Positions 29,623 to 55,634 of a DNA stretch of 64,000 bases are shown here, piece after piece; positions within the stretch are counted from its first letter, which is position 1; every line of letters starts with the position of its first letter. The notes below the pieces were generated by a model. That model was not told where the DNA came from and made no database searches. It saw only the letters and a list, made by a program, of their open reading frames with translations. This stretch comes from Klebsiella phage HMGUkp2: sequence record PV683292.1, one strand, 5' to 3'. The translations under genes and the position numbers were made by a program.

Positions 29623-29625
29623 GGT

Positions 29626-32254: not shown

Positions 32255-32468
32255 CCTCGAAGGATTTTTAGAAGAAGTGCAAGACCAAGATGCCATCCCT
32301 TATTTGCTTAAATTGTATCTAAGGGAAATGCTTGATCTTGATATTCACATCGACCCTAAGAACCCGCACGATACGGATATCACATCCGAAACTGCTTTAA
32401 TTAATCATCAGTATAATGTTTCTGATGACGGATTTAGCGTAGTAATTGATTACATTCCTAAGGTATAA
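32238..32468 (+). CDS. hypothetical protein
   Basis: overlaps gp55 3' end; 76 aa. Confidence 0.35.
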
Positions 32469-32469
32469 A

Positions 32470-36589: not shown

Positions 36590-36783
36590 ATGAAGATGCA
36601 ATTACAGGCCAGTGGTTGCTGGCCTGGCCTGAAGTGAAACGCTTCAGGCTTACAAACGCGTTCAGTGGCGATGAACACATTGTTACTGAACGAATGATTA
36701 AAAATGCTTTTAAAGAATCAGATTACAATCTTATAATGTCGAACAGACATTCTGCATGGTTCCTTGAAGACTACTTCGATTAA
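36586..36783 (+). CDS. hypothetical protein
   Basis: 65 aa. Confidence 0.4.
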   Translation: MNEDAITGQWLLAWPEVKRFRLTNAFSGDEHIVTERMIKNAFKESDYNLIMSNRHSAWFLEDYFD

Positions 36784-36798
36784 TTGATAAGGTATATT

Positions 36799-37173
36799 AT
36801 GAACATCCTGACTGCTAAAGATATCCAAGTTAAAAACGTACGTACTGATTTGAACCCTAACAATCAAAACAAAATTCGTAAGTCTTGGGTACTAGCCCTT
36901 GATGAAGGCACACAAGCTGCTATTAAAGCTAAAATCAAAACCCCTGAAGCTCGCTGGGCATATTATGAAGCTCTCGATTCCGCTGTAAACGATAAATGGT
37001 TAGAATTAATGCGGGCTCATTATGCCGATTCTATTAAAGCCGGTGCTAAGATCGTTGTAGATCGTAATGGTGGCGAACGTCTTGAAGACGACTACTGTGT
37101 AGATGCAGATGAACAGCTGGTTATCGCAGGTCGGTTCGTTGCTGAAGAAGTTATCGCTGAATTCTCTAAATAA
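36799..37173 (+). CDS. RpbA-like protein (by position and size)
   Basis: ~125 aa ORF between 46 and 45 as T4 rpbA. Confidence 0.3.
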   Translation: MNILTAKDIQVKNVRTDLNPNNQNKIRKSWVLALDEGTQAAIKAKIKTPEARWAYYEALDSAVNDKWLELMRAHYADSIKAGAKIVVDRNGGERLEDDYCVDADEQLVIAGRFVAEEVIAEFSK

Positions 37174-37191
37174 TGATTTGAAAGGTACAAA

Positions 37192-37896
37192 ATGAAATTT
37201 TCTAAAGAAACCATCGCAGTTCTGAAAAACTTCTCTACTATCAATTCTGGCATCGTTCTGACCCCAGGTAATTTTGTAATGACCCGTTCTATTATTGGAA
37301 CGACTTATGCCGATGCAACAATTCAAGATGAAATCGATAACGAGCTGGCAATCTATGATCTGTCTGGCTTTCTAAGTGTTCTGTCTCTGGTCGGTGATGA
37401 TGCTGAAGTAACTCTTCAAGACGACGGCCAAATTGCAATCAAGAGCAATCGTTCTGCGGTGTACTGGGCCGGCGCCGATAAATCTACTATCGTTGTACCT
37501 AAAGCCAAAGCAAGCTTCCCGGTAGCAAACGTTATCACTGAACTGAAAGCTGAAGATCTTCAACAGCTGAAACGTGTTGCAAGTGGTCTGAACCTTGATA
37601 CGATTACCATTTCTAATAAGTCTGGTGAAATCGTTATGCAGGCTTATAATAAAACTGAAGACCCAGAACTGATTAAACCTAAATATGCATTAACCCTCGG
37701 TGAGTATGATGGTACTGAAAACTTCAACTTTGTTATTAACCGTGATAACTTGAAGATGGTTCCATCTGATTACAAACTGATGTTATGGGGTAAAAACCTG
37801 GCTGATGGCAAGAAACAAACTGCTGCTAAATTTGAAAGTGACAACTACACTTACATTACAGCAATGGAAATCGATTCGACTTTCGACTTTCAATAA
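37192..37896 (+). CDS. 45: sliding clamp gp45
   Basis: 234 aa; KNFSTINSGIVLTPGNFVMTRSI ... KAEDLQQLKRV ... MEIDSTFDFQ closely parallels T4 gp45. Confidence 0.9.
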   Translation: MKFSKETIAVLKNFSTINSGIVLTPGNFVMTRSIIGTTYADATIQDEIDNELAIYDLSGFLSVLSLVGDDAEVTLQDDGQIAIKSNRSAVYWAGADKSTIVVPKAKASFPVANVITELKAEDLQQLKRVASGLNLDTITISNKSGEIVMQAYNKTEDPELIKPKYALTLGEYDGTENFNFVINRDNLKMVPSDYKLMLWGKNLADGKKQTAAKFESDNYTYITAMEIDSTFDFQ

Positions 37897-37942
37897 AATT
37901 TAAATGGGAGCTACGGCTCCCTCTGAACTGAGGAAAATATTG

Positions 37943-38902
37943 ATGCTGACAGTAAATAAAAATGAGTTCATGTTTGAACAACGTTATCGCCCAAGCACAA
38001 TTGAAGAGTGTATTCTTCCTGCTCGCGATAAAGAAATATTTCAGGCTCTTGTTAAGAAAGGGCAGATTCCTCACTTAATCCTCCAAAGTAATTCACCTGG
38101 AACAGGCAAAACTACTGTAGCTAAAGCATTATGCCATGACGTTAATGCTGAGATGCTGTTTGTCAATGGTTCTGATTGTAAGATCGATTTTGTCCGTAAC
38201 GAATTAACTCGATTTGCAAGTTCTATCTCTATGGAAGGACGTCAGAAAATCATCGTTATCGATGAATTCGACCGTAGCGGCTTGGCTGAAGCCCAGCGTC
38301 ACTTACGTTCTTTCATGGAACAATATTCAAGCAACTGTTCAATCATTATTACTGCTAACGACCTTGACGGTATTATTAAGCCACTTCAGTCTCGTTGTCG
38401 TGTAATCACATTTGGTTCTCCTTCTGAAGAAGATGCCAAATCAATGCAACGTGAAATGCTGAAACGCTGTATTGCCATTTGTGAAAACGAAGGTATTGTT
38501 GTTGAAGACCGTAAAGTTCTGGCTGCGTTAGTATCTAAGAACTTTCCTGAACTTCGTAAGACAATCAATATGCTAGACCATTATAGTTCTAAAGGAATTA
38601 TTGATGCAGGCATCTTGAACGTCGTCACTAAGGCCTCCGATTCAATCGAAGCAGTTATTGAAGCACTTCGAAATAAAGATATCAAATCTCTTCGTGCTTT
38701 GGCTCCGAAATATGCAGCCGATTATGCATGGTTCGTAGATAAGCTATCGTCTGAACTGTATACTATGGTCACTGGACCAAGTATCGTACGTATGTATGAA
38801 ATTATTGGTGAAAACAACCAATATAAAGGTGTGGCGGCTTCAACTGAACTCCACATCGTGTATATGTTCATTCAACTAGCTATCGAGATGCAGTGGAAAT
38901 GA
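37943..38902 (+). CDS. 44: clamp-loader large subunit gp44
   Basis: 319 aa; EQRYRPSTIEECILPA, SPGTGKTT, VIDEFDRSG, SRC motifs. Confidence 0.9.
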   Translation: MLTVNKNEFMFEQRYRPSTIEECILPARDKEIFQALVKKGQIPHLILQSNSPGTGKTTVAKALCHDVNAEMLFVNGSDCKIDFVRNELTRFASSISMEGRQKIIVIDEFDRSGLAEAQRHLRSFMEQYSSNCSIIITANDLDGIIKPLQSRCRVITFGSPSEEDAKSMQREMLKRCIAICENEGIVVEDRKVLAALVSKNFPELRKTINMLDHYSSKGIIDAGILNVVTKASDSIEAVIEALRNKDIKSLRALAPKYAADYAWFVDKLSSELYTMVTGPSIVRMYEIIGENNQYKGVAASTELHIVYMFIQLAIEMQWK

Positions 38903-39471
38903 GTTTATTCTTTTTTGATGATGAACCGGAATACAATGAGCACCAAATCGCATGGCTGACTAAGGATTGGTCAGCAGTCCAGAAATGTGCAGATCAATTT
39001 AAAGAATCTCCTGAAAGTGAGTTCTTTAGATTAATAAACGCAATCAATGACACTAAGCAACAAATTAATGTGTCGCAAATGGACTACAGCAAATTCATGA
39101 TTGAAAATGCCTTAAGCCAACATGCTGAATGCATGCCAGCGGTTTATGTAATGAACTTAGTAGGACAAGGTCTCTCAGACCAAGCACACTTTAACTACAT
39201 GAAACACGCCGTTCCAAAAGGTAAGCGATACGGTAAGTGGGCTAAACTAACTGAAGATTCGAATAAAATGCTTATACTTAAAGTAATTCAAGCATTTTAT
39301 AAAATCAACGTCTATGATGCTGATATGTATCATAAGACAATGTTCGCTAAAGGTAATCTACTTTCTTTCTTAAAACAGGCTAAAGCTCTTGTTACAGATG
39401 AAATGGTTAAGAGCATTACTAAAAATGTGAAAGAACAAAAACAACTCAAAAAACAAGCATTGGAATGGTAG
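38899..39471 (+). CDS. 62: clamp-loader small subunit gp62
   Basis: ATGA coupling to 44; HQIAWLTKDWSAVQ ... KEQKQLKKQALEW parallels T4 gp62. Confidence 0.8.
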   Translation: MSLFFFDDEPEYNEHQIAWLTKDWSAVQKCADQFKESPESEFFRLINAINDTKQQINVSQMDYSKFMIENALSQHAECMPAVYVMNLVGQGLSDQAHFNYMKHAVPKGKRYGKWAKLTEDSNKMLILKVIQAFYKINVYDADMYHKTMFAKGNLLSFLKQAKALVTDEMVKSITKNVKEQKQLKKQALEW

Positions 39472-39473
39472 GT

Positions 39474-39842
39474 ATGATTGAAATTACATTAAAACAGCCA
39501 GAAGATTTTCTGAAGGTTAAAGAAACCCTTACTCGTATGGGTATTGCTAATAATCGTGATAAGGTATTATATCAGAGCTGTCACATTCTTCAGAAGCAAG
39601 GTCTGTACTATATTGTTCATTTTAAAGAAATGCTAAAACTGGACGGTCGCCCTGTGGTTATGACTGAAGAAGATGAACAGCGACGTGACTCAATTGCTTG
39701 GCTACTTGAAGACTGGGGTCTGATTGAGATTGCCCCAGGCCAGCGTACATTAATGCACGAAATGACTAATAACTTCCGTGTTATAGGATTTAAGCAGAAA
39801 TCCGAATGGACCCTGAAATCTAAGTATACTATCGGTAGTTAA
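39474..39842 (+). CDS. regA: translational repressor RegA
   Basis: 122 aa; MIEITLKQPEDFLKVKETLTRMGIANNRDKVLYQSCHILQKQGLYYIVHFKEML near-identical to T4 RegA. Confidence 0.9.
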   Translation: MIEITLKQPEDFLKVKETLTRMGIANNRDKVLYQSCHILQKQGLYYIVHFKEMLKLDGRPVVMTEEDEQRRDSIAWLLEDWGLIEIAPGQRTLMHEMTNNFRVIGFKQKSEWTLKSKYTIGS

Positions 39843-39851
39843 AGATTAAGC

Positions 39852-39875
39852 AATGGGACTTCGGTCCCATTTTGG
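39852..39875 (+). terminator. intrinsic terminator
   Basis: TGGGACTTCGGTCCCA + TTTT. Confidence 0.7.
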
Positions 39876-39925
39876 AGTATAATTCATTCACCAAATAAAA
39901 GACAATTACTCGTCTAAGGAACCAA

Positions 39926-42634
39926 ATGAAAGAATTCTTTTTAACTATCGAACAGTTAGGCAACACCATTCACGAGAGATACATCGATTCAAATGGGGTT
40001 GAACAAACTCGTCAGATTGATTATAAACCAACCCTGTTCTATCATTCTGATGTTGAATCAAAGTACAAAGATATCTATGGAATGAATTGTAAGAAAAAAC
40101 GATTCCCGGATATGAAGGAAGCTCGTAACTGGATTCGTAGAATGGAAGACATCGGGCAGGATGCAATGGGCATGGATGACTTCAAGCTGGCCTATTTGTC
40201 TGACAGGTACCCAGGTGAAATTCATTTTAACCCGGCGTTAGTTCGCCAGTGTAACTATGACATCGAAGTAACAGCACCGGAATTTCCAAAGCCTAATGAA
40301 GCCAAGTATCCTATCGATGCGTTAACTCATTACGATAGTATTGCTGATAAGTTCTATGTGTTTGACCTTCTGAATTCTCCTTATGGTAAAGTATCTAAGT
40401 GGGACCCGGTACTAGCCGGTAAGCCTGAATCAGAAGGTGGTGATGAAATCCCTCAGGATATTCTCGACCGAGTTGTTTATCTGCCGTTTGATAACGAACA
40501 AGAACTTCTTCTCGAATACCTGAATCTGTGGGAACAGCAGACACCTGTTATTCTGACAGGCTGGAACGTAGAAAGTTTCGATAACCCGTACGTTTATAAT
40601 CGACTGAAGAATGTGTTTGGTGAAAAGACTGCTAAACGTTTAAGCCCTCTTCGTAAAGTCAATAGCAAAATTATTGCCGACACCTTTGGTGATGAGCGTG
40701 AAATTATCACACCGTTGGGTATCAGTGTTCTTGACTACCTAGATTTATATAAGAAATTTAGTTTTACGAACCAGCCTTCGTATCGCCTTGACTACGTAGC
40801 TGAGTATGAACTTGGTGTAGGTAAATTAGAATACGACGGACCTATCAACAAACTTCGTGAAACTAACCACCAACGATATATTTCGTATAACATTATCGAC
40901 GTTGCTCGAGTACAACAAATCGATAAAAAACGTCAGTTCTTGAACCTGGCGTTAGATATGGCTTATTATGCTAAAATGCCGATGCAGTCTGTGTTCAGCC
41001 CTATTAAGACTTGGGATGCAATCATCTTTAACTCTTTGAAGAACGACAATAAAGTCATTCCTCAGAAAAAGCACCACATTCCACAAAGTTATCCAGGTGC
41101 ATATGTTAAAGAGCCTACTCCTAATAGTTACAAGTACGTTATATCTGCTGACTTGACATCTCTGTATCCAAGTATTATTCGACAAGTTAACATAAGCCCG
41201 GAAACTTTGCACGGCCAGTTTGCTGTTCGACCTCTTCATGAATATATCGCTGGGACCGCTCCAAAACCGAGCGAAGAATACTCTTGTTCACCTAACGGTT
41301 GGATGTATCGTAAAGATATCGATGGTGTCGTACCGGTTGAAATTAAGAAAGTTTTCGACCAGCGTAAACTTCATAAAGGATTTATGTTGGCTGCCCAACG
41401 TAATGCGGAACTTATTAAAGAAGCATTGCATAATCCAAAGAGCACTTCTGATAAATCAGAACCAACTCTTGATTACCGTTTCGATATGGAAGAAAGTATC
41501 AAGGCCCAGCTTCATGATTTGAACGAAGCTATCTTGTTGAGTATGCTTGATAAAGCAACTCGTACTGAAGTAGCCGGTATGACTGCACAGATCTGTCGTA
41601 AACTACTTATCAACTCGCTTTATGGTGCACTTGGTAACGTACACTTCCGTTATTATGACCTTCGTAACGCAACGGCAATCACTTTGTTTGGCCAGTTGGC
41701 ACTGCAATGGATTGAACGACGAGTGAACGAGTTCTACAATGAAACACTGAAGACTGGTAACCATAAGTATGTTATCTATGGTGACACAGACTCAATTTAT
41801 ATGTGTGTAGACCCATTAATTGAGAAGATTGGTGAAGACAAGTTCCGTGACACGAACCATTTAGTAGACTTCTTAGATAAGTTTGCTAAAGAAAAATTAG
41901 AGCCAGCTATTGGCCGTGCATTCCAAGATATGTGCGACTACATGAACAACAAAGAACAGCTGATGTTCATGGACCGAGAAGCTATTGCTTGTCCTCCGTT
42001 AGGTTCTAAAGGTCTTGGTGGTTTCTGGACTGGTAAGAAGCGATACGCTTTGAACGTGTATGACATGGAAGGGACTCGATATGCGGACCCTAAAATGAAA
42101 ATTATGGGCCTTGAAACACAGAAATCAAGTACTCCTAAAGCATGTCAGAAAGCGTTGAAAGAATGCATCCGTCGTATGCTTCAAGAAGGTGAAAGCTCAT
42201 TACAAGACTACTATAAAGAGTTTGAACAAGAATTCCGTAAGCAGCACTATATGACTATTGCTGGCGTTAGTTCTGCAAACAACATCGCCCAGTACGACGA
42301 TAACGGTTATCCAGGATATAAGTGCCCGTTCCATATTCGTGGAATCCTAGCTTATAACCGTGCAACCAAAAACATTCCTGATGCAGAAGCAATTGTCGAA
42401 GGTTCTAAAGTAATGGTACTCCCATTACGGGACCAGAACCCATTCGGTGATAAATGCATCGCATGGCCGTCAGGTACTCAAATTAATCCTGCTATTCGTG
42501 AAGATGTATTAAAATACCTTGACTATTCGACTTTGTTCCAGAAAACGTTTGTTAAACCGTTGTCTGGGTTTACCACGGCGGCTAGAATCAATTATGAACA
42601 TGTCGCGACCTTAGATGATATCTTAGGGTGGTAG
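39926..42634 (+). CDS. 43: DNA polymerase gp43 (family B)
   Basis: 902 aa; N-terminus MKEFFLTIEQLGNTIHERYIDSNGVEQTR matches T4 gp43; exo and pol motifs (YGDTDS) present. Confidence 0.95.
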   Translation: MKEFFLTIEQLGNTIHERYIDSNGVEQTRQIDYKPTLFYHSDVESKYKDIYGMNCKKKRFPDMKEARNWIRRMEDIGQDAMGMDDFKLAYLSDRYPGEIHFNPALVRQCNYDIEVTAPEFPKPNEAKYPIDALTHYDSIADKFYVFDLLNSPYGKVSKWDPVLAGKPESEGGDEIPQDILDRVVYLPFDNEQELLLEYLNLWEQQTPVILTGWNVESFDNPYVYNRLKNVFGEKTAKRLSPLRKVNSKIIADTFGDEREIITPLGISVLDYLDLYKKFSFTNQPSYRLDYVAEYELGVGKLEYDGPINKLRETNHQRYISYNIIDVARVQQIDKKRQFLNLALDMAYYAKMPMQSVFSPIKTWDAIIFNSLKNDNKVIPQKKHHIPQSYPGAYVKEPTPNSYKYVISADLTSLYPSIIRQVNISPETLHGQFAVRPLHEYIAGTAPKPSEEYSCSPNGWMYRKDIDGVVPVEIKKVFDQRKLHKGFMLAAQRNAELIKEALHNPKSTSDKSEPTLDYRFDMEESIKAQLHDLNEAILLSMLDKATRTEVAGMTAQICRKLLINSLYGALGNVHFRYYDLRNATAITLFGQLALQWIERRVNEFYNETLKTGNHKYVIYGDTDSIYMCVDPLIEKIGEDKFRDTNHLVDFLDKFAKEKLEPAIGRAFQDMCDYMNNKEQLMFMDREAIACPPLGSKGLGGFWTGKKRYALNVYDMEGTRYADPKMKIMGLETQKSSTPKACQKALKECIRRMLQEGESSLQDYYKEFEQEFRKQHYMTIAGVSSANNIAQYDDNGYPGYKCPFHIRGILAYNRATKNIPDAEAIVEGSKVMVLPLRDQNPFGDKCIAWPSGTQINPAIREDVLKYLDYSTLFQKTFVKPLSGFTTAARINYEHVATLDDILGW

Positions 42635-42725
42635 TATAGATTAGGCCAGGCCCTAAAGTGATTCTAGGGCCTCGCTTTAATTATTATGTAGTATAATGGC
42701 TCCGTCAACAATTGAGGAACACAAA

Positions 42726-44390
42726 ATGCGTAAAGTAGTTATCTTAGGTGCCGGTCTTGGGTCTCGCTTATATCCAATTACCAATGAGATCCCTAAAGTG
42801 CTTGTAAACTATAAACAGCACACAGTTTTTAAACACCTGGTTGATTTGTATAAAAATCAATCAGATGAAATTATTCTAGTAATTCATAGTAAATTTGATG
42901 GGCTAGTTCGTGGATACATGAAGTCGGTTGGAATAAGCGATATCACCATTCGCCATGTTGATGTATCCATAGGTTCTGCACACGCTATTGATTGTATTGC
43001 TGATGATATCGTAGGACACAACGTACTATTCAACTGGTGTGACATTATTCCGGAAGGCCACAAAGTAGAATGGGGTAACGATTATTGCTATACCTTTGGT
43101 ACAGATTGCCGTTTCACTTTTGAAGAACCGTATTTTCGTGAAATTGGGACAGGTGGCGGTGTGGTTGGCCTGTATCAAGTAGCTAAATGGCCCGGGTTCT
43201 GTTCTTTTGAAGGCAACTACGGTGAAGACCTTGCCGACAATTTAGATTCTATGGTTTATATGACCGAGCGTAAGCTAGAGGCAGTCATTGACATCGGCGA
43301 TAAGATTAAATTGGCCGAAGCACATAAAACCTCTGAGATTAATCGTGACTTTAACAAGCTCAAATTTACAGATCAACACGCTATTAAAATCCCGACTAAT
43401 GAGTATGGTAAAGAAATTCAAGCTAAAGAGCTTAAATGGTATAATTCTGTACAATCGAAATTTATTCCTACTATTGTAGATTTCACACCAGGCGAATTTA
43501 TTAAAATGGAACGAATCTACGGTAAAACCATGGCAGATGCGTACCCTCTGATGACCAAAGATACCCAAGTATTAATGGTATATAAAGTAATCAGTGCTCT
43601 GAAATCATTAGGCGGCGATATCTATATTCCTACCGACGAACAGTGGTACGCGGACGTTAAGAAAGAAGTTCTTGATAAGGTATTAATCCGCAACGATTCT
43701 ATTAAAGAACTTTTAGAAGGGTTTGCACCTGAAGGCATTACCCATGTTAATGATTTTAAAGTAGGTAAGCCAGAAAAACTGCTGGAACACGCATTAGAAA
43801 TTCTATCCGAGCATAAAGAACCGTACCAGTTGATTCATGGGGACCCGCATTATTCTAACATTATGTTTACTGATTCGGGTGATATTAAAATTATAGACCC
43901 GCGTGGATATTTTGGTAATAGCCAATACGGCCCTACCATTTATGATGAAGCTAAAGTGCTTTATTCTATTGATGGGTACGATAAATTTAATGCAGACCCA
44001 CTATGGGGCGGTATTTCTCGGAATGGCACTAGGCTGTTTGTCGAGATTGAGAAAGTAATGCCGTTAGATGATATTCCTATGTGTACCTTTAAGCATAAAC
44101 TGTGGATTGCTGTTATTTGGATGGCTTTAGCAGGCTATTTCAAGAACAATCCGCTTAAGGCTATTGGCGCTTATTATCATGGTCTATATCAGCTGAGTGT
44201 GCTGCTTAAAAGTCAGCCTCGTAAACGCAAACTTATCGATGGCACAGAAGTAACTGAAGTTAAAGACCCTATCACAGCTTCTATTATTACCAGATGCCCT
44301 GATAAATGGGAACTGCTTGATAAAGAAACTGGTGTAAAATATAAACCAATTGGTGGTAACATCACCCATCAGTGGGAACGAATTGGGTAA
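42726..44390 (+). CDS. bifunctional nucleotidyltransferase / APH-like (anomeric sugar or small-alcohol) kinase
   Basis: N-term LGAGLGSRLYPIT (GxGxRL NTase motif, GlmU/RmlA/LicC-like); C-term HGDPHYSNIMF + IIDPRGYFG (Brenner HxDxxxxN and DxG motifs of APH/choline-kinase/AmgK fold); GAGGAA RBS. Confidence 0.65.
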   Translation: MRKVVILGAGLGSRLYPITNEIPKVLVNYKQHTVFKHLVDLYKNQSDEIILVIHSKFDGLVRGYMKSVGISDITIRHVDVSIGSAHAIDCIADDIVGHNVLFNWCDIIPEGHKVEWGNDYCYTFGTDCRFTFEEPYFREIGTGGGVVGLYQVAKWPGFCSFEGNYGEDLADNLDSMVYMTERKLEAVIDIGDKIKLAEAHKTSEINRDFNKLKFTDQHAIKIPTNEYGKEIQAKELKWYNSVQSKFIPTIVDFTPGEFIKMERIYGKTMADAYPLMTKDTQVLMVYKVISALKSLGGDIYIPTDEQWYADVKKEVLDKVLIRNDSIKELLEGFAPEGITHVNDFKVGKPEKLLEHALEILSEHKEPYQLIHGDPHYSNIMFTDSGDIKIIDPRGYFGNSQYGPTIYDEAKVLYSIDGYDKFNADPLWGGISRNGTRLFVEIEKVMPLDDIPMCTFKHKLWIAVIWMALAGYFKNNPLKAIGAYYHGLYQLSVLLKSQPRKRKLIDGTEVTEVKDPITASIITRCPDKWELLDKETGVKYKPIGGNITHQWERIG

Positions 44391-44453
44391 TCCCAGTTCG
44401 TAATTAAGATGTTGAGGAGGCTAAAGCCTCCTCTTAAACTATAAGGCCTATTA

Positions 44454-44813
44454 ATGAATCTCTGTTTCGACATCGACAACACAATCACGATATGGAATAG
44501 CAACCGTGATTATCTGAATTTTGAGCCGGACCCAGAAATGGTGGCCATAATTAACAAGCTCTATGATGAAGGCCACGAGATAACCTTGTATACGGCCCGT
44601 GGTATGACCTCTTGTGGCCCTGGTCGAATTCTGACTGAAGTGGTCCCGGCTCTTGTAAAGAACCTTGAAAAAATTGGACTGAAGTATCATAACCTGCTTA
44701 CACATAAACCAAGTTATGATTTTATTATTGACGACCGGGCAATTCGTCCTGATCACTTTAAGAAAATGATTCAAGATGGCACATTTGAAACATACAAGGC
44801 GTATCATCCATGA
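44454..44813 (+). CDS. HAD-superfamily phosphatase
   Basis: FDIDNTIT (DxDxT motif I), later LYTARG and DDRA. Confidence 0.6.
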   Translation: MNLCFDIDNTITIWNSNRDYLNFEPDPEMVAIINKLYDEGHEITLYTARGMTSCGPGRILTEVVPALVKNLEKIGLKYHNLLTHKPSYDFIIDDRAIRPDHFKKMIQDGTFETYKAYHP

Positions 44814-45373
44814 GTCCTAAAATTATTGTTGTAGACGGCCCTGATAATTCAGGGAAGTCTACTTTAATTAACAAGTTACTTAATAATACTAATTTTAAGC
44901 TTATTGATTTTCCTAAGAAAATTAACGGCAAGTGTATTTCTATAGGCACCGATAACGATAAGGCTTTAGTAGAGACCTTATATAAATTTTTAGACCCTAA
45001 TTTCGTCTACATCTTAGATCGCGGTTATCCTAGTAATATTGTTTACTCTGGATTTCTTCGTGGCGAAATGGACCCGTTCGAAGAACTTAAAGACTGGGAA
45101 GAATTCAAAGAAGAGTTCAATGTCATCGAGGTTATTTTAACTCGCAATCCGTTGGACGAGGACTTTGAAGACGATCTTATTAAGCTGACTAAGGATGAGT
45201 TCAATATGACTATTCGTCAGTATGAAACCCACTTTAAGAACGTGTTCAAGATTCTTAATCATGACGGTAAGAATAATCTGCTTAACGTAGATACAGTAGA
45301 ATTAAAACGTTTGAACGGCTATATTAATTATGAGGTTAGTAAACGAAACGCATTACAAAGGCCTCTACATTAA
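44810..45373 (+). CDS. P-loop kinase, thymidylate-kinase/dNK-like
   Basis: IVVDGPDNSGKSTL Walker A; LDRGYPSNIVYSG (DR motif); ATGA-coupled to HAD gene. Confidence 0.55.
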   Translation: MSPKIIVVDGPDNSGKSTLINKLLNNTNFKLIDFPKKINGKCISIGTDNDKALVETLYKFLDPNFVYILDRGYPSNIVYSGFLRGEMDPFEELKDWEEFKEEFNVIEVILTRNPLDEDFEDDLIKLTKDEFNMTIRQYETHFKNVFKILNHDGKNNLLNVDTVELKRLNGYINYEVSKRNALQRPLH

Positions 45374-45523
45374 TTACTGACGGCAAAGCTATATACTATG
45401 ATTAATTCAAAACCTTAATGAATAAAGGTGAATTTGAATTTTTAATCTTATAACCAAACTTATAAAAATAATTTAAAGTAAGACCTGCAAAAACCGTCGC
45501 GTCAGTTAACAACGAGATGCAAA

Positions 45524-46684
45524 ATGAATATTTTTAAAGTAGGAACAAATTTCGATTTAGCTTTGTTGGATAAAATTGTAGAACTCAGCAAAAAATATCC
45601 GAACAGCCTTATTAACGAGGTATACGGCTCTACTAGAGAAATGGCCTTCATCGCAGCAAGGCCTGATTTCAGATTACCTGATGTCGGGAAGTCTTTTCTT
45701 GAAGAGTATGTCAAGCGCTGTAATGAACTAGGAATCTGTTTTAATTATACTTTTAACACAATAAATCCAGGTTCAAAACGAGAACTTGATGAATGGAAAA
45801 AGAAAGCTATTCAAGAGTACGTTCAGTATCTTTGGTCTATAGGTGTTTGGCGTATCACTATAGCTAACCCAGTTGTAATGGAAATTGTTCGTGAAGTCAA
45901 TAAAGAGATTGAGATCGAAGTTTCAACTATACTTCATATTGATGCCGTGACTCAAATCAAATATCTTCACGACCAATACAACATTAAGAAAGTGTGTTGT
46001 GGAATTCATAAGAACCGGTCTGTTAACTTCTTGAAGCAGGCCGCGGCGTTTTGTAATGAAAACGGAATTATTTTTGAAGTCCTTGTTAACGAGTTCTGTT
46101 CTAACGCCGGAAAAGGTTATACAACTCACTGCAGTTATCGTGACTCTTGTTATATTTTCCATAGCACAGATGTTACAGCTGACGATGCTAAATCCTTAAA
46201 TGGCTATCCGATGCAACACTGCATTAAAGCTCGAGACACTGATCCGTTTAACTGGTTACGAACTCGCTTTGTTCGCCCGCAAGACCTGCATCTGTACCGT
46301 GACATCGGTATCACACAGTTCAAAGTTTCTGGACGTACTGGCTCAACTGAGTACATTATGAAGGTCCTTGAGGCGTATTCTTCAGAGAAGTTTGAAGGTA
46401 ATCTTCTTGAGCTGTGGAAACCTCTCGAAACCATCTACAATGGCGAATCAGATGCTAACTATAGCCATACCGTGAACATCGAAACATCGCTGTTAGACGG
46501 CTTTCTTGAAAAACGTTGGTTCAAACATCCTACGTTTGATTGCGCTAATGAAGTCTGCGGCAGTACTTGTACTTACTGTGAGCGTTACTATAAGCGTCAG
46601 TTATCTAAAAATGACCGCCCGCTGAATTCTATTCAGATCGTAGACGTTACCAGTTCAGACGACGAACTTCGTTACCCAGAATAA
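45524..46684 (+). CDS. peptidase-U32-family Fe-S protein (UbiU/UbiV/RlhA/TrhP-like putative hydroxylase)
   Basis: 386 aa; NEVYGS, ICFNYTFNT, FEVLVNEFCSNAGKGYTTHCSY and FKVSGRTGSTEYIMKV align to the U32 core (DAVYIG / AINT / FGSLC..EGRCYLSSY / VKIEGR.RSP.Y); Cys cluster CGSTCTYC at C-terminus. Confidence 0.55.
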   Translation: MNIFKVGTNFDLALLDKIVELSKKYPNSLINEVYGSTREMAFIAARPDFRLPDVGKSFLEEYVKRCNELGICFNYTFNTINPGSKRELDEWKKKAIQEYVQYLWSIGVWRITIANPVVMEIVREVNKEIEIEVSTILHIDAVTQIKYLHDQYNIKKVCCGIHKNRSVNFLKQAAAFCNENGIIFEVLVNEFCSNAGKGYTTHCSYRDSCYIFHSTDVTADDAKSLNGYPMQHCIKARDTDPFNWLRTRFVRPQDLHLYRDIGITQFKVSGRTGSTEYIMKVLEAYSSEKFEGNLLELWKPLETIYNGESDANYSHTVNIETSLLDGFLEKRWFKHPTFDCANEVCGSTCTYCERYYKRQLSKNDRPLNSIQIVDVTSSDDELRYPE

Positions 46685-46686
46685 GC

Positions 46687-46709
46687 AAAGAGGCTTAGGC
46701 CTCTTTTAG
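46687..46709 (+). terminator. intrinsic terminator
   Basis: AGAGGCTTAGGCCTCT + TTTT. Confidence 0.65.
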
Positions 46710-46727
46710 TATATAATAGGATTTTTA

Positions 46728-47441
46728 ATGTCAGAGCACAACAGAATGAAACATATTTCATATCCGTCTTTCCAGACCGCATTCAAAGTACTGAATGAAG
46801 AGATTCTCAACAATCCGCAGTTCGTTATTGATTCTCGTATTGGCCGTTGTAATGAAATCGGTTCTGCTTCAATTGAAGTAACCGATCCGACAACGTTCAA
46901 ATTCACTGATCCTCGTATCAACCGCATTAGTTATGAATATGCCGAAGCCTTCTGGCAATTCATGATTTCTGGTGGTACTGATGCTGCTGAAGCATTTAAG
47001 GAATACCCGAATGTTGCTAAGTTCATTGATAAGCCGAAAAGTGACGTACTGCCTGCAAACTTCAACACTTTCTATGGGCCTCGAATTGCTGCCCAGCTCC
47101 CAGCCTTACTTAAAGAGCTTAAAGAAAAGGCTAACTCGCGACGGGTTGTATTCCAAATTCTTCAAGAGAAAGACCAAGCACTGTTAGATTCAGATGAATC
47201 CCTCGAATACCCGTGCACAGATTCTATAACATACTATATCCGTGAAGGCAAGCTTTATGCCCATACACATATGCGTTCACAGAACTGTGCTGTAGTGATG
47301 CAGCTGGACTTTTATCTGCAAGGCAAGTTAATGCAATACATTGCAGATCAATGTGGTGTACAATTAGGTACGTATTCTCACACTATGGTTTCAGCCCACG
47401 TCTTTGAACGTGATTTTGATTATGTAAGAGGTTTTATCTGA
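46728..47441 (+). CDS. 42: thymidylate-synthase-fold pyrimidine (dCMP?) hydroxymethylase, gp42-like
   Basis: 237 aa; EYPCTDSITYYIREGKLYAHTHMRSQNCAV aligns with gp42 DFMCTNTVQYLIRDKKINAVVNMRSNDVVF (catalytic Cys, RS-x-N/D phosphate site); downstream LDFY Asp at the specificity position. Confidence 0.65.
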   Translation: MSEHNRMKHISYPSFQTAFKVLNEEILNNPQFVIDSRIGRCNEIGSASIEVTDPTTFKFTDPRINRISYEYAEAFWQFMISGGTDAAEAFKEYPNVAKFIDKPKSDVLPANFNTFYGPRIAAQLPALLKELKEKANSRRVVFQILQEKDQALLDSDESLEYPCTDSITYYIREGKLYAHTHMRSQNCAVVMQLDFYLQGKLMQYIADQCGVQLGTYSHTMVSAHVFERDFDYVRGFI

Positions 47442-48337
47442 TGGCTTATTTCCGTGTACCAATCTTTAGTATGCGAAGCTATGAAACTGGTGAATACGCC
47501 GTCCTTAAGGACGGCAACTTCCAGTTACATTTGAATCGTGCTAGTGCTGGTGATATCATCGCGGTTCCACGTAATGCAAGTGATATCGAAGAGTGTAAAG
47601 AACTATTCCCAGAGTTTGAATTTGTCCCTCTTTGGTACAAGGAAAATGCTTATGAAACTCGTAAACATTTCTGGGAAGAAAATCAGTTTATAGTTGATTC
47701 TTTAGTTGATTACTACGACTGCTCTTATCTAGTGACAGATATTACTGGATATCAAGGCAAACACGAGGTATTCTTTGTTTTTAATATAACTAAAGACCCT
47801 GAGAATCCTCGGTATTATATTGACGAGTTTATTGACATTGACGTTGAATCTGTAAACAAGTCTGTAGCAACGTTTGTTCTTAATCATGGCCAGAAAGACG
47901 TTCTCGTAGCGGCAGGTGCAATTCCGGGCCGTATCTTTGTAGATCAACGGGTCATTAAGCCGAGTGTCATGGAACGTTATACGGAAGGCCTGGAACCAAT
48001 CCACCTTGATGGTATTTTTCATCCATTCCGTATCAGCGATCCGTGTTATCGTTTCGACCAAGTTGTCGAATGCGCTATTGCAGCAGATAGCGTCTTGTAT
48101 ATCACAGACCCGAACATGAGTTTCAAACGTGAACTGTATCCTGAAGAAGCAAAGATCCATGTTCTTCGTCTGTCTAAGAAAGAATACTATCAAGTACTAA
48201 TGGGTCGACCGACTATCCAGTACTTTGAAGACCCTGAAAAAGTGTTTCACCCTGGGTTAGCAGAGTTTATCTATTTTAATGCTAAAATAAATTCTCCATA
48301 TAATATTCCTGCTTATAACCATGTGGTAATTAATTAA
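47441..48337 (+). CDS. hypothetical 298-aa protein in beta-glucosyltransferase position, translationally coupled to hydroxymethylase (candidate DNA-modifying transferase)
   Basis: ATGA coupling; no motif I can assign. Confidence 0.45.
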   Translation: MAYFRVPIFSMRSYETGEYAVLKDGNFQLHLNRASAGDIIAVPRNASDIEECKELFPEFEFVPLWYKENAYETRKHFWEENQFIVDSLVDYYDCSYLVTDITGYQGKHEVFFVFNITKDPENPRYYIDEFIDIDVESVNKSVATFVLNHGQKDVLVAAGAIPGRIFVDQRVIKPSVMERYTEGLEPIHLDGIFHPFRISDPCYRFDQVVECAIAADSVLYITDPNMSFKRELYPEEAKIHVLRLSKKEYYQVLMGRPTIQYFEDPEKVFHPGLAEFIYFNAKINSPYNIPAYNHVVIN

Positions 48338-48362
48338 TAAGTTTATTTTGTAAACCAGGCGG

Positions 48363-48415
48363 TTTACAATGGTGTAGGAGCGTGTTAAAGTGTTCCTACA
48401 CATTTGGAGAAAACT
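48363..48415 (+). promoter_or_regulatory. early promoter-stem-loop cassette m
   Basis: GTTTACAATGGTGTAGGAGCGTGTTAAAGTGTTCCTACAC. Confidence 0.55.
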
Positions 48416-48856
48416 ATGAAACTTAAATCAATTATAGTACTGTCTGCATTAACTCTTACTGGCTGTGCTCAGACTGAAGGATACCCGTATCGTCTTTCTG
48501 ATGTAGGTACAATCTTTACTGTTGGTGGTAACAATATAGGTTATGTCCGTAACGCAAATGCTAATCAGGTTCACTATTCTAGCGACCATGAAGAAGCAAT
48601 GGCTATGAAACGAGAACATGACGCCAAGATGGATGCCATAATCGCCGGTGAGCAAGCAAAGCAACCTAAAAACTCACCATTCAAACGACAGTGTGAAATC
48701 AACTGGAAACTGGATGAAGCCGTACTTCAGCAGCGTTTAATGAATTCTTCTATTCATAACTACGAAGCTAACTATAAAGCCCTGAACAACCATAGGCTGG
48801 CTGCTTATTCCAAAGTGGAAAAGTGTATAGCTAAGGCTGAAGCCAAAGCAAAGTAA
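48416..48856 (+). CDS. lipoprotein
   Basis: MKLKSIIVLSALTLTGC lipobox. Confidence 0.55.
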   Translation: MKLKSIIVLSALTLTGCAQTEGYPYRLSDVGTIFTVGGNNIGYVRNANANQVHYSSDHEEAMAMKREHDAKMDAIIAGEQAKQPKNSPFKRQCEINWKLDEAVLQQRLMNSSIHNYEANYKALNNHRLAAYSKVEKCIAKAEAKAK

Positions 48857-48953: not shown

Positions 48954-50123
48954 ATGTCCGATTTGAAATCTCGCCTGATTAAAGCTTCTACCACTAAACT
49001 GACCGCTGATCTGACTAAATCAAAATTGTTCAATGATCGTGATGAAGTTATGACACGAATTCCTATGCTGAACATCGCATTAGGCGGTAGCTTGAATAGT
49101 GGTTTACAAAGTGGCTTAACAATCTTTGCTGCACCATCCAAACACTTTAAAACTCTGTTTGGTCTGACTATGGTTGCTGCATATATGAAGAAATATCCGG
49201 ATGCGATTTGTCTGTTCTACGACAGCGAATTTGGTGCTTCTGAAAGTTATTTCCGTTCAATGGGTGTTGACCTGGAACGTGTTGTCCATACTCCGATCCA
49301 GTCAGTTGAACAACTGAAAATTGATATGGTCAATCAGCTGGAAGCTATCGAACGCGGTGACAAGGTGATTATGTTCATCGACTCTATCGGTAACACAGCC
49401 TCTAAGAAAGAAACACAAGATGCTTTAGACGAGAAACAGGTCGGTGACATGACTCGTGCTAAATCTCTTAAATCTTTGTTCCGTATCGTTACGCCTTATT
49501 TGACGATTAAAGATATCCCTTGTGTGGCTATTAACCATACAGCTATGGAAATCGGCAGTATGTATCCTAAAGAAGTTATGGGTGGTGGTACCGGCATTCT
49601 TTATTCTGCAAGTACCGTATTCTTTATTTCTAAACGTCAGGTTAAAGAAGGTACTGAACTGACCGGGTATGATTTTACTCTTAAAGCCGAGAAATCTCGT
49701 ACGGTCCAAGAGAAATCTACGTTCCCGATCACTGTTAACTTCAAGGGTGGTATCGATCCGTTCTCTGGACTGCTTGAACTGGCCACAGAAATTGGCTTTG
49801 TTGTTAAACCTAAAGCAGGCTGGTATTCTCGTGCTTTCTTAGACGAAGAAACTGGTGAAATGGTTCAAGAAGAAAAGTCATGGCGTGCTAAAGCCACAGA
49901 TGACGTAGAATTCTGGGGTCCTTTGTTTAAACACAAGCCATTCCGTGACGCAATCGAAACAAAATATAAACTCGGTGCTGTTTCTTCTATTAAAGAAGTT
50001 GACGATGCGGTTGCTGATCTGTTATCTTCTAAACCAACGTCTAAAATTCCGGTAAAAGCCAAATCAGCTCCTAGTGCTGCTGACATTGAAGACGAACTGG
50101 AAAATTTCGCTGATGAAGAATAA
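48954..50123 (+). CDS. uvsX: recombinase UvsX (RecA-like)
   Basis: 389 aa; MSDLKSRLIKAST.KLTA.LT.SK.FN..D ... high identity to T4 UvsX throughout. Confidence 0.95.
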   Translation: MSDLKSRLIKASTTKLTADLTKSKLFNDRDEVMTRIPMLNIALGGSLNSGLQSGLTIFAAPSKHFKTLFGLTMVAAYMKKYPDAICLFYDSEFGASESYFRSMGVDLERVVHTPIQSVEQLKIDMVNQLEAIERGDKVIMFIDSIGNTASKKETQDALDEKQVGDMTRAKSLKSLFRIVTPYLTIKDIPCVAINHTAMEIGSMYPKEVMGGGTGILYSASTVFFISKRQVKEGTELTGYDFTLKAEKSRTVQEKSTFPITVNFKGGIDPFSGLLELATEIGFVVKPKAGWYSRAFLDEETGEMVQEEKSWRAKATDDVEFWGPLFKHKPFRDAIETKYKLGAVSSIKEVDDAVADLLSSKPTSKIPVKAKSAPSAADIEDELENFADEE

Positions 50124-53971: not shown

Positions 53972-54253
53972 ATGAATAACACCCAGCACGCACTTCTTAA
54001 GTTATCAGAAGAGTGCAATGAGGTAGCACAGATTTGCTCTAAAATTATGCAGTTCGGCTTCGACTCCGAATATGACGGTAAGACCAACAGAGAACGTCTA
54101 ACTGAGGAGCTTAACGATATTCTAGGGGCTGTTCTAAATTTGACCCTAGAAACTGACTTCAGGTTCTCTGAAGACGTGGATGCTAAGTGGGCCAAGGTAG
54201 ATAAAATGATTCGCTACAGAGAAATCTCTAAAAACTTAGGTTTTGTTCAATAA
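53972..54253 (+). CDS. small all-alpha protein, possibly MazG-like NTP pyrophosphatase
   Basis: 93 aa; LSEECNEVAQ...RERLTEELNDILGAVLNL pattern. Confidence 0.3.
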   Translation: MNNTQHALLKLSEECNEVAQICSKIMQFGFDSEYDGKTNRERLTEELNDILGAVLNLTLETDFRFSEDVDAKWAKVDKMIRYREISKNLGFVQ

Positions 54254-54256
54254 GCA

Positions 54257-54312
54257 GTTTACATCTCTGTAAGAGCATTGTATAGTGCTCTTACAAACTA
54301 AAGGAGAGTATC
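54257..54312 (+). promoter_or_regulatory. early promoter-stem-loop cassette o
   Basis: GTTTACATCTCTGTAAGAGCATTGTATAGTGCTCTTACA (perfect 10-bp inverted repeat). Confidence 0.6.
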
Positions 54313-55074
54313 ATGAAAACTATCTTAACTGCAATTGCTTTAACTATCGCTTCCTTTTCAGCTCAAGCTGCTTCATTTGACTGCTCTAAAGCTTCTACTA
54401 AAGTAGAAAAACTGATTTGTTCAGATGCATTAGTTTCTGACTTGGATTCGAGCCTTAACAAGGTTTATAATTCAATCAAAGAAAAGCCTGTTGAAGACCA
54501 GCGGGCTTGGATTAAAAATGTCAGAAACAAACAAACTACTGTAGAAGGTCTTGCATACGTTTATGCTTCCCGTATAGAAGAACTCGCTAATAATGAAAAG
54601 TACGAGTATACTGTAGTAGATATGCCTAAAGAGCCAGTGAAAGAAGTTAAAGAAGTTAAAGAAGTTAAAGAAACTAAGCCTAAATCCATAGTAGACAACT
54701 TAAAAGAACATGTGGCTAAAGGCTATATCGAAGCTGATGGGCGCAGAATTTCTTTAGAAGTCTTAGACAAGTTCGGCGATACCTATTTGGACCGGTGTAA
54801 CATAAAAATGGCTTATAACCAATTTGAGCGGATCGAATCTGAAGTTTACCGTTCGGCCCCTATTAGGGATGTTGCATGGCTTGATGCAAATAAAGAAGCT
54901 ATTGTAATAGCTTTAGCAAACACTAGTACTGCGCTTATTGAAACGCCGGAAGATGAAGCTTCTTTCCTAGATGCATGCAAAGACCTATTTAAGAAAGAAG
55001 AAGCCCGGTTAGAAAAAGAAAAAGAAAACCGGCGTTTGACTGAAGAGTTCTTTGAAAACGCTAAAAAGAACTGA
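54313..55074 (+). CDS. secreted DUF1311/LprI-N-terminal-like protein with KEV repeats
   Basis: Signal peptide; DCSKASTKVEKLICSDALVSDLDSSLNKVY; 9-bp tandem repeat gaagttaaa x3-4 encoding KEVKEVKEVKE. Confidence 0.45.
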   Translation: MKTILTAIALTIASFSAQAASFDCSKASTKVEKLICSDALVSDLDSSLNKVYNSIKEKPVEDQRAWIKNVRNKQTTVEGLAYVYASRIEELANNEKYEYTVVDMPKEPVKEVKEVKEVKETKPKSIVDNLKEHVAKGYIEADGRRISLEVLDKFGDTYLDRCNIKMAYNQFERIESEVYRSAPIRDVAWLDANKEAIVIALANTSTALIETPEDEASFLDACKDLFKKEEARLEKEKENRRLTEEFFENAKKN

Positions 55075-55118: not shown

Positions 55119-55634
55119 ATGCCACATTTTAACGAATGTAGTCAACTGATTGATGGGGTTGATAAAGCTCAGGCTGCATATGATAGCCTTATAGCAAAAC
55201 ATTCCGACCCTCTTCAAGTTATGCTTAATATGCAAAAATCTCTGCAGGTTCGTCTTGCAAATGACCGTGAATACTGCTATCATCCAGATAAATTAGAAAC
55301 TGCTGGCGATGTGGTTTCTTGGATGCGTGAACAGAAAGACTGTATTGATGATGAATTCCGTGAATTACTGACTTCACTTGGTGAAATGTCACGTGGTGAA
55401 AAAGAAGCGTCCGCAGTCTGGAAAAAATGGAAAGCACGTTATACAGAAGCGCAAGAAAAACGTATTTCCGACATGTCTCCTAAAGACCAGCTTGAAATTA
55501 AATTCGAAATGATCGATATTCTTCATTTCGTTCTTAACATGTTCCAGGGCCTAGGTATGACGGCTGAAGAAATTTTCAAATTGTATTATCTGAAGAATGC
55601 CGAAAATTTTGCCCGTCAAGACCGGGGCTATTGA
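55119..55634 (+). CDS. 56: MazG-like dCTPase/dUTPase, gp56-like
   Basis: 171 aa (T4 gp56 size), all-alpha NTP-PPase pattern, position between primase and soc. Confidence 0.6.
   Translation: MPHFNECSQLIDGVDKAQAAYDSLIAKHSDPLQVMLNMQKSLQVRLANDREYCYHPDKLETAGDVVSWMREQKDCIDDEFRELLTSLGEMSRGEKEASAVWKKWKARYTEAQEKRISDMSPKDQLEIKFEMIDILHFVLNMFQGLGMTAEEIFKLYYLKNAENFARQDRGY

Follow-up and report, generated by a model that had tools for sequence, protein, structure and literature searches.

A gene island in Klebsiella phage HMGUkp2 that probably directs arabinosyl-5-hydroxycytosine DNA hypermodification, and its U32 protein as a candidate oxygen-independent hydroxylase

Introduction

What chemistry is encoded between the genes for DNA polymerase (gp43) and UvsX in Klebsiella phage HMGUkp2, and what might a protein of the peptidase U32 family contribute to it? 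We analysed a 64,000-nucleotide stretch of this phage's DNA (sequence record PV683292.1; the window hereafter), in which an earlier note had described six plus-strand genes in this interval, encoding a nucleotidyltransferase (NTase)-kinase fusion, a HAD phosphatase, a kinase resembling thymidylate kinase (TMPK-like), the U32 protein, a thymidylate synthase (TS)-fold enzyme and a 298-aa protein. All six open reading frames (ORF1 to ORF6, in that order) are present at 42696-48337, and their domain families are as given there, by Pfam and by the intact motifs GLGSR, HGDPHYSN, DIDNT and GPDNSGKS. The proposal that they form a cytosine hypermodification island with a self-made nucleoside diphosphate (NDP)-sugar donor is supported by orthology to genes of phages RB69 and HY126.

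We find that the island is very probably a minimal version of the arabinosyl-5-hydroxycytosine (ara-5hoC) DNA hypermodification system of RB69-like Straboviridae. In RB69 and Acinetobacter phage DLP3, 5-hydroxycytosine (5hoC) stands in for cytosine and bears from one to three arabinofuranoses at its C5 oxygen, the RB69 cluster being gp45-gp55; reports of ara-5hoC cover RB69, DLP3, HY126, Bas46/47 and Serratia phages, and the carriers listed in PMC13326640 include Marfaviruses. The former assignment of arabinosyl-5-hydroxymethylcytosine (arabinosyl-hmC) to RB69 has since been corrected. The window is a Marfavirus: Klebsiella phage Marfa is 96.8% identical to it over the whole island, F48-type Marfaviruses are ~90% identical to the island, and ~260 further T4-like phages are more distantly related. 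Since the publications of 2025-2026 name Marfaviruses, the chemistry of the island is already known; the earlier note correctly saw that the island matches neither glucosyl-hmC nor the then-accepted arabinosyl-hmC systems, and its suggestion of a new chemistry does not stand. The U32 protein, which it had singled out as unusual, is indeed the only component for which we found no assigned role. By analogy with bacterial members of its family, we give even chances that this protein, together with a family of ~290 homologues found so far, hydroxylates C5 of deoxycytidylate or another pyrimidine DNA precursor in a prephenate-dependent, O2-independent manner.

Results

Base branch

ORF5, previously taken for a gp42-like hydroxymethylase, has the TS fold but the active-site signature of 5-hydroxy-dCMP synthases: besides the catalytic C163 it carries E160, N186 and D194, equivalent to L143E, D169N and N177D in E. 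coli ThyA numbering. An Asn in place of ThyA Asp169 marks an enzyme as a 5-hydroxy-dCMP synthase (PMC13326640), whereas T4 gp42 retains Asp. ORF5 is 80% identical to RB69 gp48 (ORF048c), a TS homologue that binds flavin and makes 5-hydroxy-dCMP with O2, as established by 18O2 labelling (Lee et al., NAR 2026, PMC13326640), and in a PDB sequence search it matched 9iqc/9ir2 of the HY126 series at E 1.4e-131, and T4 gp42 (1b49) only at E 3e-4. ORF5 is therefore predicted to be a flavin- and O2-dependent 5-hydroxy-dCMP synthase, and by N186, D194, E160 and the identity to gp48 the base replacing cytosine would be 5hoC, not 5-hmC as had been supposed. It is very improbable that ORF5 is a gp42-like dCMP hydroxymethylase after all, with 5-hmC or a further oxidised base decorated by an undescribed chemistry from a novel self-made donor: that view accommodates the TS fold, the presence of a dCTPase and the donor-building architecture, yet conflicts with the Asn at position 169, with the closeness to a demonstrated 5-hydroxy-dCMP maker and with the correction of the RB69 arabinosyl-hmC assignment.

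The gp56-like dCTPase that the earlier note had placed elsewhere in the window is present (Table 1; 25.9 bits), and similarity to T4 NP_049646.1 is the basis on which its Marfa ortholog was annotated. The TMPK-like ORF3 matches phrog_761 (E 3.5e-37), is 38% identical to RB69 ORF045c and has a P-loop (GPDNSGKS) and a DR motif. Homologues of it adjoin the transferase and hydroxylase genes in most related loci, and ORF3, as the counterpart of RB69 gp45 and DLP3 gp78, would be a dedicated 5-hydroxy-dCMP kinase. Its gene stands between those for the HAD and U32 proteins here and after the transferase gene in RB69. Directly behind it lies a degenerate copy of a HAD gene 3' end, 61% identical by tblastn to residues 98-128 of RB69 ORF051c (gp51), interrupted by stops (ITDGKAIYYD, stop, FKTLMNKGEFEFLIL, stop, PNL) and resembling RB69 more closely than it does the HAD gene of the window itself; relocation of the kinase gene by recombination seems to have left it as a scar.

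Sugar branch

ORF1 matches phrog_4098 over its full length (E 6e-260), with Pfam domains NTP_transferase at residues 13-106 and APH at 355-424 and the motifs GLGSR at residue 20, HGDPHYSN at 381 and DPRG at 401; its NTase and kinase halves are each 43% identical to their RB69 counterparts (ORF053c and ORF052c). By this similarity it corresponds to RB69 gp52:53 and HY126 AfhE, and would act as a D-arabinose-5-phosphate 1-kinase and UDP-arabinofuranose pyrophosphorylase; AfhE is bifunctional, a kinase of arabinose-5-phosphate as well as a UDP-arabinose pyrophosphorylase, as He et al. (2026) are summarised in PMC13326640. ORF2, with DIDNT at residue 6, is 66% identical to RB69 ORF051c (gp51), matches PDB 9iqw at E 8e-55 and scores 49.5 bits with the capsule-biosynthesis phosphatase model TIGR01689. 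It corresponds in sequence to gp51 and to AfhF, a Mg-dependent HAD phosphatase in the same summary of He et al. (2026), and would strip the 5-phosphate from arabinofuranose-1,5-bisphosphate.

A tblastn search found nothing in the window that matches the arabinose-5-phosphate isomerase (RB69 gp55, DLP3 gp83). None of the host genera listed for the 276 phage records with this gene is Klebsiella, and at most three of ~25 Klebsiella records could have it; as it is also missing from 4 of 15 T4-like loci, the isomerase is an accessory rather than a defining part of the ara-5hoC system. The host enzymes KdsD and GutQ, known from lipopolysaccharide biochemistry, are able to supply arabinose-5-phosphate (Ara5P), which with no phage isomerase would have to come from them.

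That the sugar genes are instead auxiliary metabolic genes for salvage of host envelope or capsule sugars (AmgK/MurU-like, capsule phosphatase-like), unrelated to DNA, is barely credible: weak NCBIfam matches to MurU, GlmU-type nucleotidyltransferases and the EcbF/BcbF capsule phosphatase, and a PHROG label 'phosphoheptose isomerase' on the HAD protein, point that way, but the scores lie far under the curated cut-offs (20-22 bits against 250-370 for the MurU models), the genes are co-linear and translationally coupled with those of the dCMP hydroxylase and DNA transferase in every relative, and the orthologs AfhE and AfhF, as PMC13326640 relates, were shown to make UDP-arabinose.

Transferase and degree of arabinosylation

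The 298-aa ORF6 occupies the slot of T4 beta-gt and was suspected of being a transferase, in keeping with its AlphaFold2 model, a GT-B fold (predicted local distance difference test, pLDDT, 94.4) with MshA (3c4q) and sucrose-phosphate synthase (6kih) as best PDB matches in Foldseek. The same top matches are given for RB69 gp46:47 (PMC13326640, Table 1), and ORF6 is 67% and 74% identical to RB69 ORF047c and ORF046c. It has no Pfam family, belongs to a family of 117 unannotated proteins and showed no sequence-level match to T4 beta-gt in a PDB search. On the strength of the model and its RB69 counterpart, ORF6 is probably the first, base-proximal GT-B DNA arabinosyltransferase, equivalent to gp46:47 and DLP3 gp79. 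Its start overlaps the synthase stop (TGATG, 47439-47443), bearing out the coupling noted earlier, and the HAD and TMPK-like genes overlap likewise (ATGA, 44810-44813); both overlaps represent translational coupling.

As the earlier note had stated, no alpha-gt, beta-gt or dam was detected, and the mid-size ORFs of the window include no second glycosyltransferase or methyltransferase family. The second transferase of RB69, gp3, is absent from all Klebsiella phages and confined to Escherichia, Shigella and Acinetobacter phages plus one Tegunavirus record; the gp3-type slot of Marfa holds small ORFs only. A single transferase is also what Shewanella phage Thanatos has, and its DNA is reported to be mono-arabinosylated (PMC13326640); together with the lack of a second transferase this predicts one arabinose per cytosine here. 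A 2025 series of PDB structures (9iqc, 9ir2, 9iqu, 9iqw, 9iqz and 9ir0) includes proteins closely related to the TS-fold hydroxylase and to the HAD phosphatase, as well as a 366-aa glycosyltransferase labelled phage HY126; no structure has been solved of the phage U32 protein, of the NTase-kinase fusion or of the first transferase.

The window thus contains the D169N TS, the AfhE-type fusion, the AfhF-type HAD phosphatase, the GT-B transferase and the dCTPase of the ara-5hoC system, and lacks the isomerase, the gp3-type second transferase and a chorismate mutase. By analogy with orthologs in which they have been demonstrated experimentally, the synthase, kinase/pyrophosphorylase and phosphatase activities may be transferred to the island; the part played by the TMPK-like kinase, first transfer by ORF6, host supply of Ara5P and mono-arabinosylation are what we infer beyond these. 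Some points tell against assignment to ara-5hoC: the first arabinosyl transfer was not reconstituted by Lee et al., who left unsettled whether it takes place on nucleotide or DNA (PMC13326640), and both UDP as the donor nucleotide and the place of the TMPK-like kinase are deductions.

Sequence and structure of the U32 protein

ORF4 scores 43.6 bits with Pfam PF01136 (gathering score 22.4). Foldseek matched its AlphaFold2 model (pLDDT 91) to 5d88, the only solved U32 structure, and then to generic TIM barrels, so that fold comparison cannot tell functions apart; a PDB sequence search gave no match. To judge from identity between the window and RB69, U32 (88.6% to gp50, ORF050c) is as conserved as UvsX (88%), with gp41 at 73% and gp43 at 70%.

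Two characterised proteins of the family provide the analogy. E. coli RlhA makes 5-hydroxycytidine (ho5C) at position 2501 of 23S rRNA and needs prephenate and Fe-S cluster biogenesis, and TrhP makes 5-hydroxyuridine (ho5U) at position 34 of tRNA, needing prephenate and not O2 and working alongside the O2-dependent TrhO, a pair that Sakai et al. regarded as suited to organisms of both oxygen regimes. Ten cysteines are invariant in 33 members of the phage family (C158, C177, C192, C203, C209, C233, C340, C345, C349 and C352), including a C-terminal CX4CX3CX2C, a four-cysteine cluster as in RlhA. The essential residues of RlhA are E161, C169 and C176 (PMC6599085); in a weak hhalign alignment (probability 70%, E 4e-5) of the U32 family profile with RlhA, these coincide with E190, C203 and C209, which are likewise invariant across the 33 members. 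Alignments of the profile with the single E. coli UbiU, UbiV and TrhP sequences were too weak to use. The phage protein has a variant of the family signature PS01276, NEFC-x10-C-x5-C, its C-x5-C following an inserted loop; RlhA, TrhP and UbiU match the PROSITE pattern and UbiV, a bona fide member, does not.

At its C-terminus, ORF4 has an acidic tail (…SDDELRYPE) that is common to T4-like U32 orthologs and absent from distant homologues; residues 374-386 are disordered in the model (pLDDT below 50).

Genomic context and distribution of U32

In F48-type Marfaviruses, an 81-aa chorismate mutase of the CM_2 family (39.5 bits versus 27) is translationally coupled to the U32 stop (PWKp16; locus L001, 6894-7139). 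Fifty-one phage genomes, whose hosts span at least 12 genera and reach as far as Shewanella, have a chorismate mutase gene between those for U32 and the TS; it was also found in 13 of 15 T4-like IMG/VR loci.

The protein has ~290 homologues; those other than the T4-like orthologs share 37-58% identity with it and come from viral or virus-like contigs. Context was examined for 37 non-T4-like viral loci from metagenomes, in a view of 8-10 kb on either side of U32. The operons, all on one strand, run TMPK-like kinase/transferase/U32, sometimes followed by a TAGT-type transferase and UDP-galactopyranose mutase; transferase/isomerase/NTase-kinase/U32, with a further kinase and/or a 3-deoxy-D-arabino-heptulosonate 7-phosphate (DAHP) synthase before U32 in some; dCMP deaminase/U32; or U32/chorismate mutase/transferase/NTase-kinase. 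An Aat-family transferase occurs in 23 of the 37 and abuts U32 in nine, and DAHP synthase occurs in seven, while a D169N-type TS was found within this view in none. U32 thus holds in these loci the place that the TS-fold hydroxylase has in the kinase/transferase/hydroxylase triads of RB69, DLP3 and RL38J1. The recurrence of a deoxynucleoside monophosphate (dNMP)-type kinase beside U32 favours action at the nucleotide level.

Two neighbouring genes were considered for other functions and rejected. The one TS-fold gene beside a distant U32 (L039), a candidate hydroxylase, is a canonical thymidylate synthase with L143, D169 and N177; and a DAHP_synth_1 neighbour in L010 is not an Ara5P-using 3-deoxy-D-manno-octulosonate 8-phosphate (KDO8P) synthase, scoring 237 bits as DAHP synthase and 63 as KDO8P synthase.

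Some of the loci deserve description in their own right. A phage-like contig of 25% GC (L007, 7068-17107; also L008 and L009) carries a near-complete shikimate pathway around its U32 homologue, comprising a DAHP synthase-chorismate mutase fusion, 3-dehydroquinate (DHQ) synthase, shikimate kinase, a fusion of DHQ dehydratase (DHQase) and 5-enolpyruvylshikimate 3-phosphate (EPSP) synthase, chorismate synthase and shikimate dehydrogenase; literature searches found no description of a phage-borne shikimate pathway. On two viral contigs (L012, 5777-14179; L044, 8424-16281), the genes around U32 encode a TMPK-like kinase, an Aat-family transferase, a pair of TAGT-like transferases, a dUTPase/dCTP deaminase (DCD) and UDP-galactopyranose mutase, and no TS-type hydroxylase, which suggests galactofuranosylated hydroxy-pyrimidine DNA made via U32. 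On three others (L006, 7447-9086; L011, 7504-9083; L059, 9513-11098), U32 directly follows a dCMP deaminase gene, with DNA polymerase III alpha, uracil-DNA glycosylase (UDG) and a thymidylate-kinase-like gene nearby; in these loci U32 might act on dUMP instead of dCMP.

Of the records of isolated phages, 369 have the TS-type hydroxylase (57 of these are from Acinetobacter and 16 from Rhizobium) and 221 have U32; the hosts listed for the latter are all Enterobacterales genera or Shewanella. U32 was found only in genomes with the 5hoC cluster and in none of the TS-carrying Acinetobacter and Rhizobium phages; it is absent from phages of strict aerobes.

Weighing the role of U32

A role as redox accessory, for example in reducing flavin for the TS-fold hydroxylase, or as a sugar-tailoring enzyme acting on the pentose donor seems unlikely, although the cysteines suggest Fe-S clusters fit for electron transfer, RB69 gp50 has been labelled 'sugar or heterocycle reductase' (from fold matches alone and without discussion; Lee et al., PMC13326640 Table 1), and an NAD-dependent epimerase/reductase-like gene adjoins U32 in L010. 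Within the 8-10 kb view, all 37 non-T4-like loci have U32 without a D169N-type TS, so it is not merely that enzyme's partner; it keeps company with different donor modules, isomerase/NTase-kinase in some and UDP-galactopyranose mutase/TAGT in others; Acinetobacter phages build the same arabinofuranosyl chains without it; and on this account its association with chorismate mutase and shikimate genes has no obvious reason.

Nor is it probable that U32 hydroxylates RNA as TrhP and RlhA do, with tRNA or rRNA of phage or host as its target and a place in the island due to chance or co-expression alone. Every characterised pyrimidine-hydroxylating U32 protein does act on RNA, the phage has tRNA genes and the best E. 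coli match of its U32 is RlhA. Yet in 37 unrelated loci U32 sits in tight operons with a DNA transferase family, a dNMP-type kinase, donor-synthesis genes or dCMP deaminase, next to the transferase gene in those nine; in isolated phages it is restricted to 5hoC-cluster genomes; and at 386 aa, against 653 for RlhA, it is missing the C-terminal DUF3656-type extension. RNA hydroxylation, redox partnership and sugar tailoring all fit the operon data less well than hydroxylation of a DNA precursor by U32.

Several observations weigh against that last role. hhalign gave only 70% probability with RlhA and lower values with TrhP, UbiU and UbiV, and U32 has no exact match to PS01276 (E-x-F-x2-G-[SA]-[LIVM]-C-x4-G-x-C-x-[LIVM]-S). 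In full-text searches that connected phage 5hoC with U32, prephenate or chorismate mutase, nothing relevant came up, and a role may already be assigned in He et al. (2026) or Mahler et al. (2025). In the window and in Marfa, the chorismate mutase is replaced by a 43-nt hairpin spacer, as seen on alignment with PWKp16, and RB69 ORF049, in the chorismate-mutase slot, has no detectable similarity to that enzyme, so that the link between chorismate mutase and U32 fails in Mosigviruses. The 8-10 kb view leaves room for a TS-type hydroxylase elsewhere on the genomes of the 37 loci, and the contrast between aerobes and anaerobes amounts to two or three independent clades. About 75 enterobacterial records (WG01, IME281, CLB_P2, Salmonella SHP1 and Enterobacter IME523 among them) have a D169N-type TS with neither U32 nor chorismate mutase, so U32 is dispensable in some lineages. 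Finally, no nrdG/nrdD (anaerobic ribonucleotide reductase) is annotated at the T4-syntenic site of Marfa, the only site covered. In the ~75 records, the TS gene directly adjoins the HAD or kinase gene.

Layout of the island and its surroundings

The features of the island and the dCTPase are collected in Table 1. Base composition of the island showed no foreign-island signature, and a promoter and terminator scan across it gave only chance-level results.

Table 1. Features of the gp43-uvsX island and the dCTPase gene (positions in the window)
Feature	Position	Strand	Basis or remark
gp43 (DNA polymerase)	39926-42634		Upstream bound of island
ORF1, NTase-kinase fusion, 564 aa	42696-44390	+	Pfam NTP_transferase and APH
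ORF2, HAD phosphatase, 119 aa	44454-44813	+	Weak Pfam HAD signal
ORF3, TMPK-like kinase, 187 aa	44810-45373	+	P-loop/thymidylate-kinase-like Pfam matches
Degenerate HAD 3' end, pseudogene fragment	45373-45462	+	tblastn to RB69 ORF051c
ORF4, U32 protein, 386 aa	45524-46684	+	Pfam PF01136 Peptidase_U32
Hairpin AAAGAGGCTTAGGCCTCTTT	46687-46706		Within 43-nt spacer 46685-46727; TATAAT after it
ORF5, TS-fold enzyme, 237 aa	46728-47441	+	Pfam Thymidylat_synt, 48.7 bits
ORF6, GT-B transferase (predicted), 298 aa	47441-48337	+	No Pfam family; structure model
uvsX	48954-50123		Downstream bound of island
gp56-type dCTPase	55119-55634	+	Outside island; Pfam dUTPase_2

Between the transferase gene and uvsX, positions 48404-48856 encode a predicted 150-aa lipoprotein (signal MKLKSIIVLSALTLTGC, phrog_1754); this slot is variable, with an unrelated 89-aa ORF in F48-type relatives and the homing endonuclease gene segA in T4. 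The interval from primase to dCTPase (53972-55074), where T4 has dam, holds a 93-aa MazG-like pyrophosphohydrolase and a 253-aa ORF with a weak LprI (lysozyme-inhibitor) domain, and no methyltransferase. From gp55 to endonuclease VII, Marfa (36209-39932, corresponding to ~29100-32800 of the window and to L020 7210-10933) has only small ORFs and a glutaredoxin annotated.

Discussion

In the pathway that we propose, the gp56-type dCTPase would remove dCTP and yield dCMP, which the TS-fold enzyme would hydroxylate at C5 by means of a flavin and O2; phosphorylation to 5-hydroxy-dCTP would fall to the TMPK-like kinase, the phage gp1 dNMP kinase or both, with host Ndk, and gp43 would incorporate the product instead of dCTP. 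On the sugar side, host KdsD/GutQ would provide D-arabinose-5-phosphate, the ORF1 kinase domain would phosphorylate C1, the HAD phosphatase would remove the 5-phosphate and the ORF1 nucleotidyltransferase domain would form UDP-arabinofuranose, from which the 298-aa GT-B enzyme would place a single arabinose on the 5-hydroxyl of each cytosine. U32 would open a second, prephenate-dependent and O2-independent route to the 5-hydroxy pyrimidine, hydroxylating C5 of dCMP or a related precursor with prephenate in place of O2, and could make replication possible without oxygen. Where the host is a facultative anaerobe, U32 would be a reserve for the O2-dependent TS-fold synthase; many uncultivated phages would depend on it as the sole hydroxylase feeding Aat/TAGT-type DNA glycosyltransferases. 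Some of the latter phages have a chorismate mutase, a DAHP synthase or an entire shikimate pathway of their own, which would supply the oxygen donor.

Judged by its genes, the island appears to confirm ara-5hoC DNA in Klebsiella Marfaviruses, which are phage-therapy candidates, with practical bearing on evasion of restriction, CRISPR and type IV defences, on DNA handling for nanopore sequencing and PCR, and on engineering. The lead worth following is the U32/chorismate-mutase module. Were U32 such a hydroxylase, it would explain how gut phages that replace every cytosine replicate under anoxia, and why phages carry aromatic-pathway genes; it would be the first U32 hydroxylase to extend prephenate-dependent chemistry from RNA and quinones to DNA precursors, would offer a small soluble enzyme for studying that chemistry, and would bring to light a group of uncultivated phages that combine shikimate genes of their own with glycosylated hydroxy-pyrimidine DNA.

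Among the closest known systems is that of Mosigvirus and its relatives (gp45-gp55 of RB69, Afh of HY126), which stands at the same gp43-uvsX site and shares seven families with the window at 38-89% identity: NTase-kinase, HAD, U32, D169N TS, first transferase, TMPK-like kinase and dCTPase. RB69 additionally has the gp55 isomerase, the gp3-type second transferase and ORF049, none of which the window has, whereas in the window the TMPK-like gene has moved between those of the HAD and U32 proteins, with the HAD 3' remnant left behind. He et al. (Nat Chem Biol, 2026) and Mahler et al. (Cell Host Microbe, 2025) reportedly describe ara-5hoC in Mosigvirus and its relatives. F48-type Marfaviruses, Thanatos and T4-like phages of Serratia, Yersinia and Edwardsiella carry the same cluster with a single transferase, and have a coupled CM_2 gene after U32 where the window and Marfa have the hairpin spacer. 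The DLP3 type of Acinetobacter phages (gp76-83) resembles the window in its D169N TS, TMPK-like kinase, first transferase, HAD phosphatase and NTase-kinase, but has an isomerase and two extra transferases, giving tri-arabinose, and no U32.

T4 itself, with gp42, alpha-gt and beta-gt, follows the same logic, in which a dCTPase is joined by a TS-fold enzyme with dCMP as its substrate, gp43 incorporates the product and a transferase encoded in the same slot glycosylates it. It adds a hydroxymethyl group using methylene-tetrahydrofolate and an enzyme with Asp-169, whereas the enzyme of the window, with Asn-169, is predicted to add a hydroxyl using flavin and O2; and T4 draws on host UDP-glucose where the window would use phage-made UDP-arabinofuranose, the transferases being unrelated. 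In donor synthesis, the pairs AmgK/MurU and LicA/LicC likewise have an APH-fold kinase followed by a nucleotidyltransferase to yield an NDP donor; the two are fused in the window, where the substrate is already 5-phosphorylated and a HAD phosphatase step therefore intervenes between them. For U32, the comparison is with E. coli RlhA, TrhP and UbiU/UbiV, which belong to the same Pfam family and of which RlhA and TrhP have an essential Glu and two Cys that align weakly with it. A genomic link to prephenate supply is a further shared feature. The phage protein is shorter, lacks the RNA-binding extension, has the variant motif and has a deoxynucleotide or DNA as its proposed substrate. UbiU/UbiV serve anaerobic ubiquinone hydroxylation and, like TrhP, have O2-dependent counterparts (UbiIHF and TrhO, respectively), to which the TS-fold enzyme would be the parallel here.

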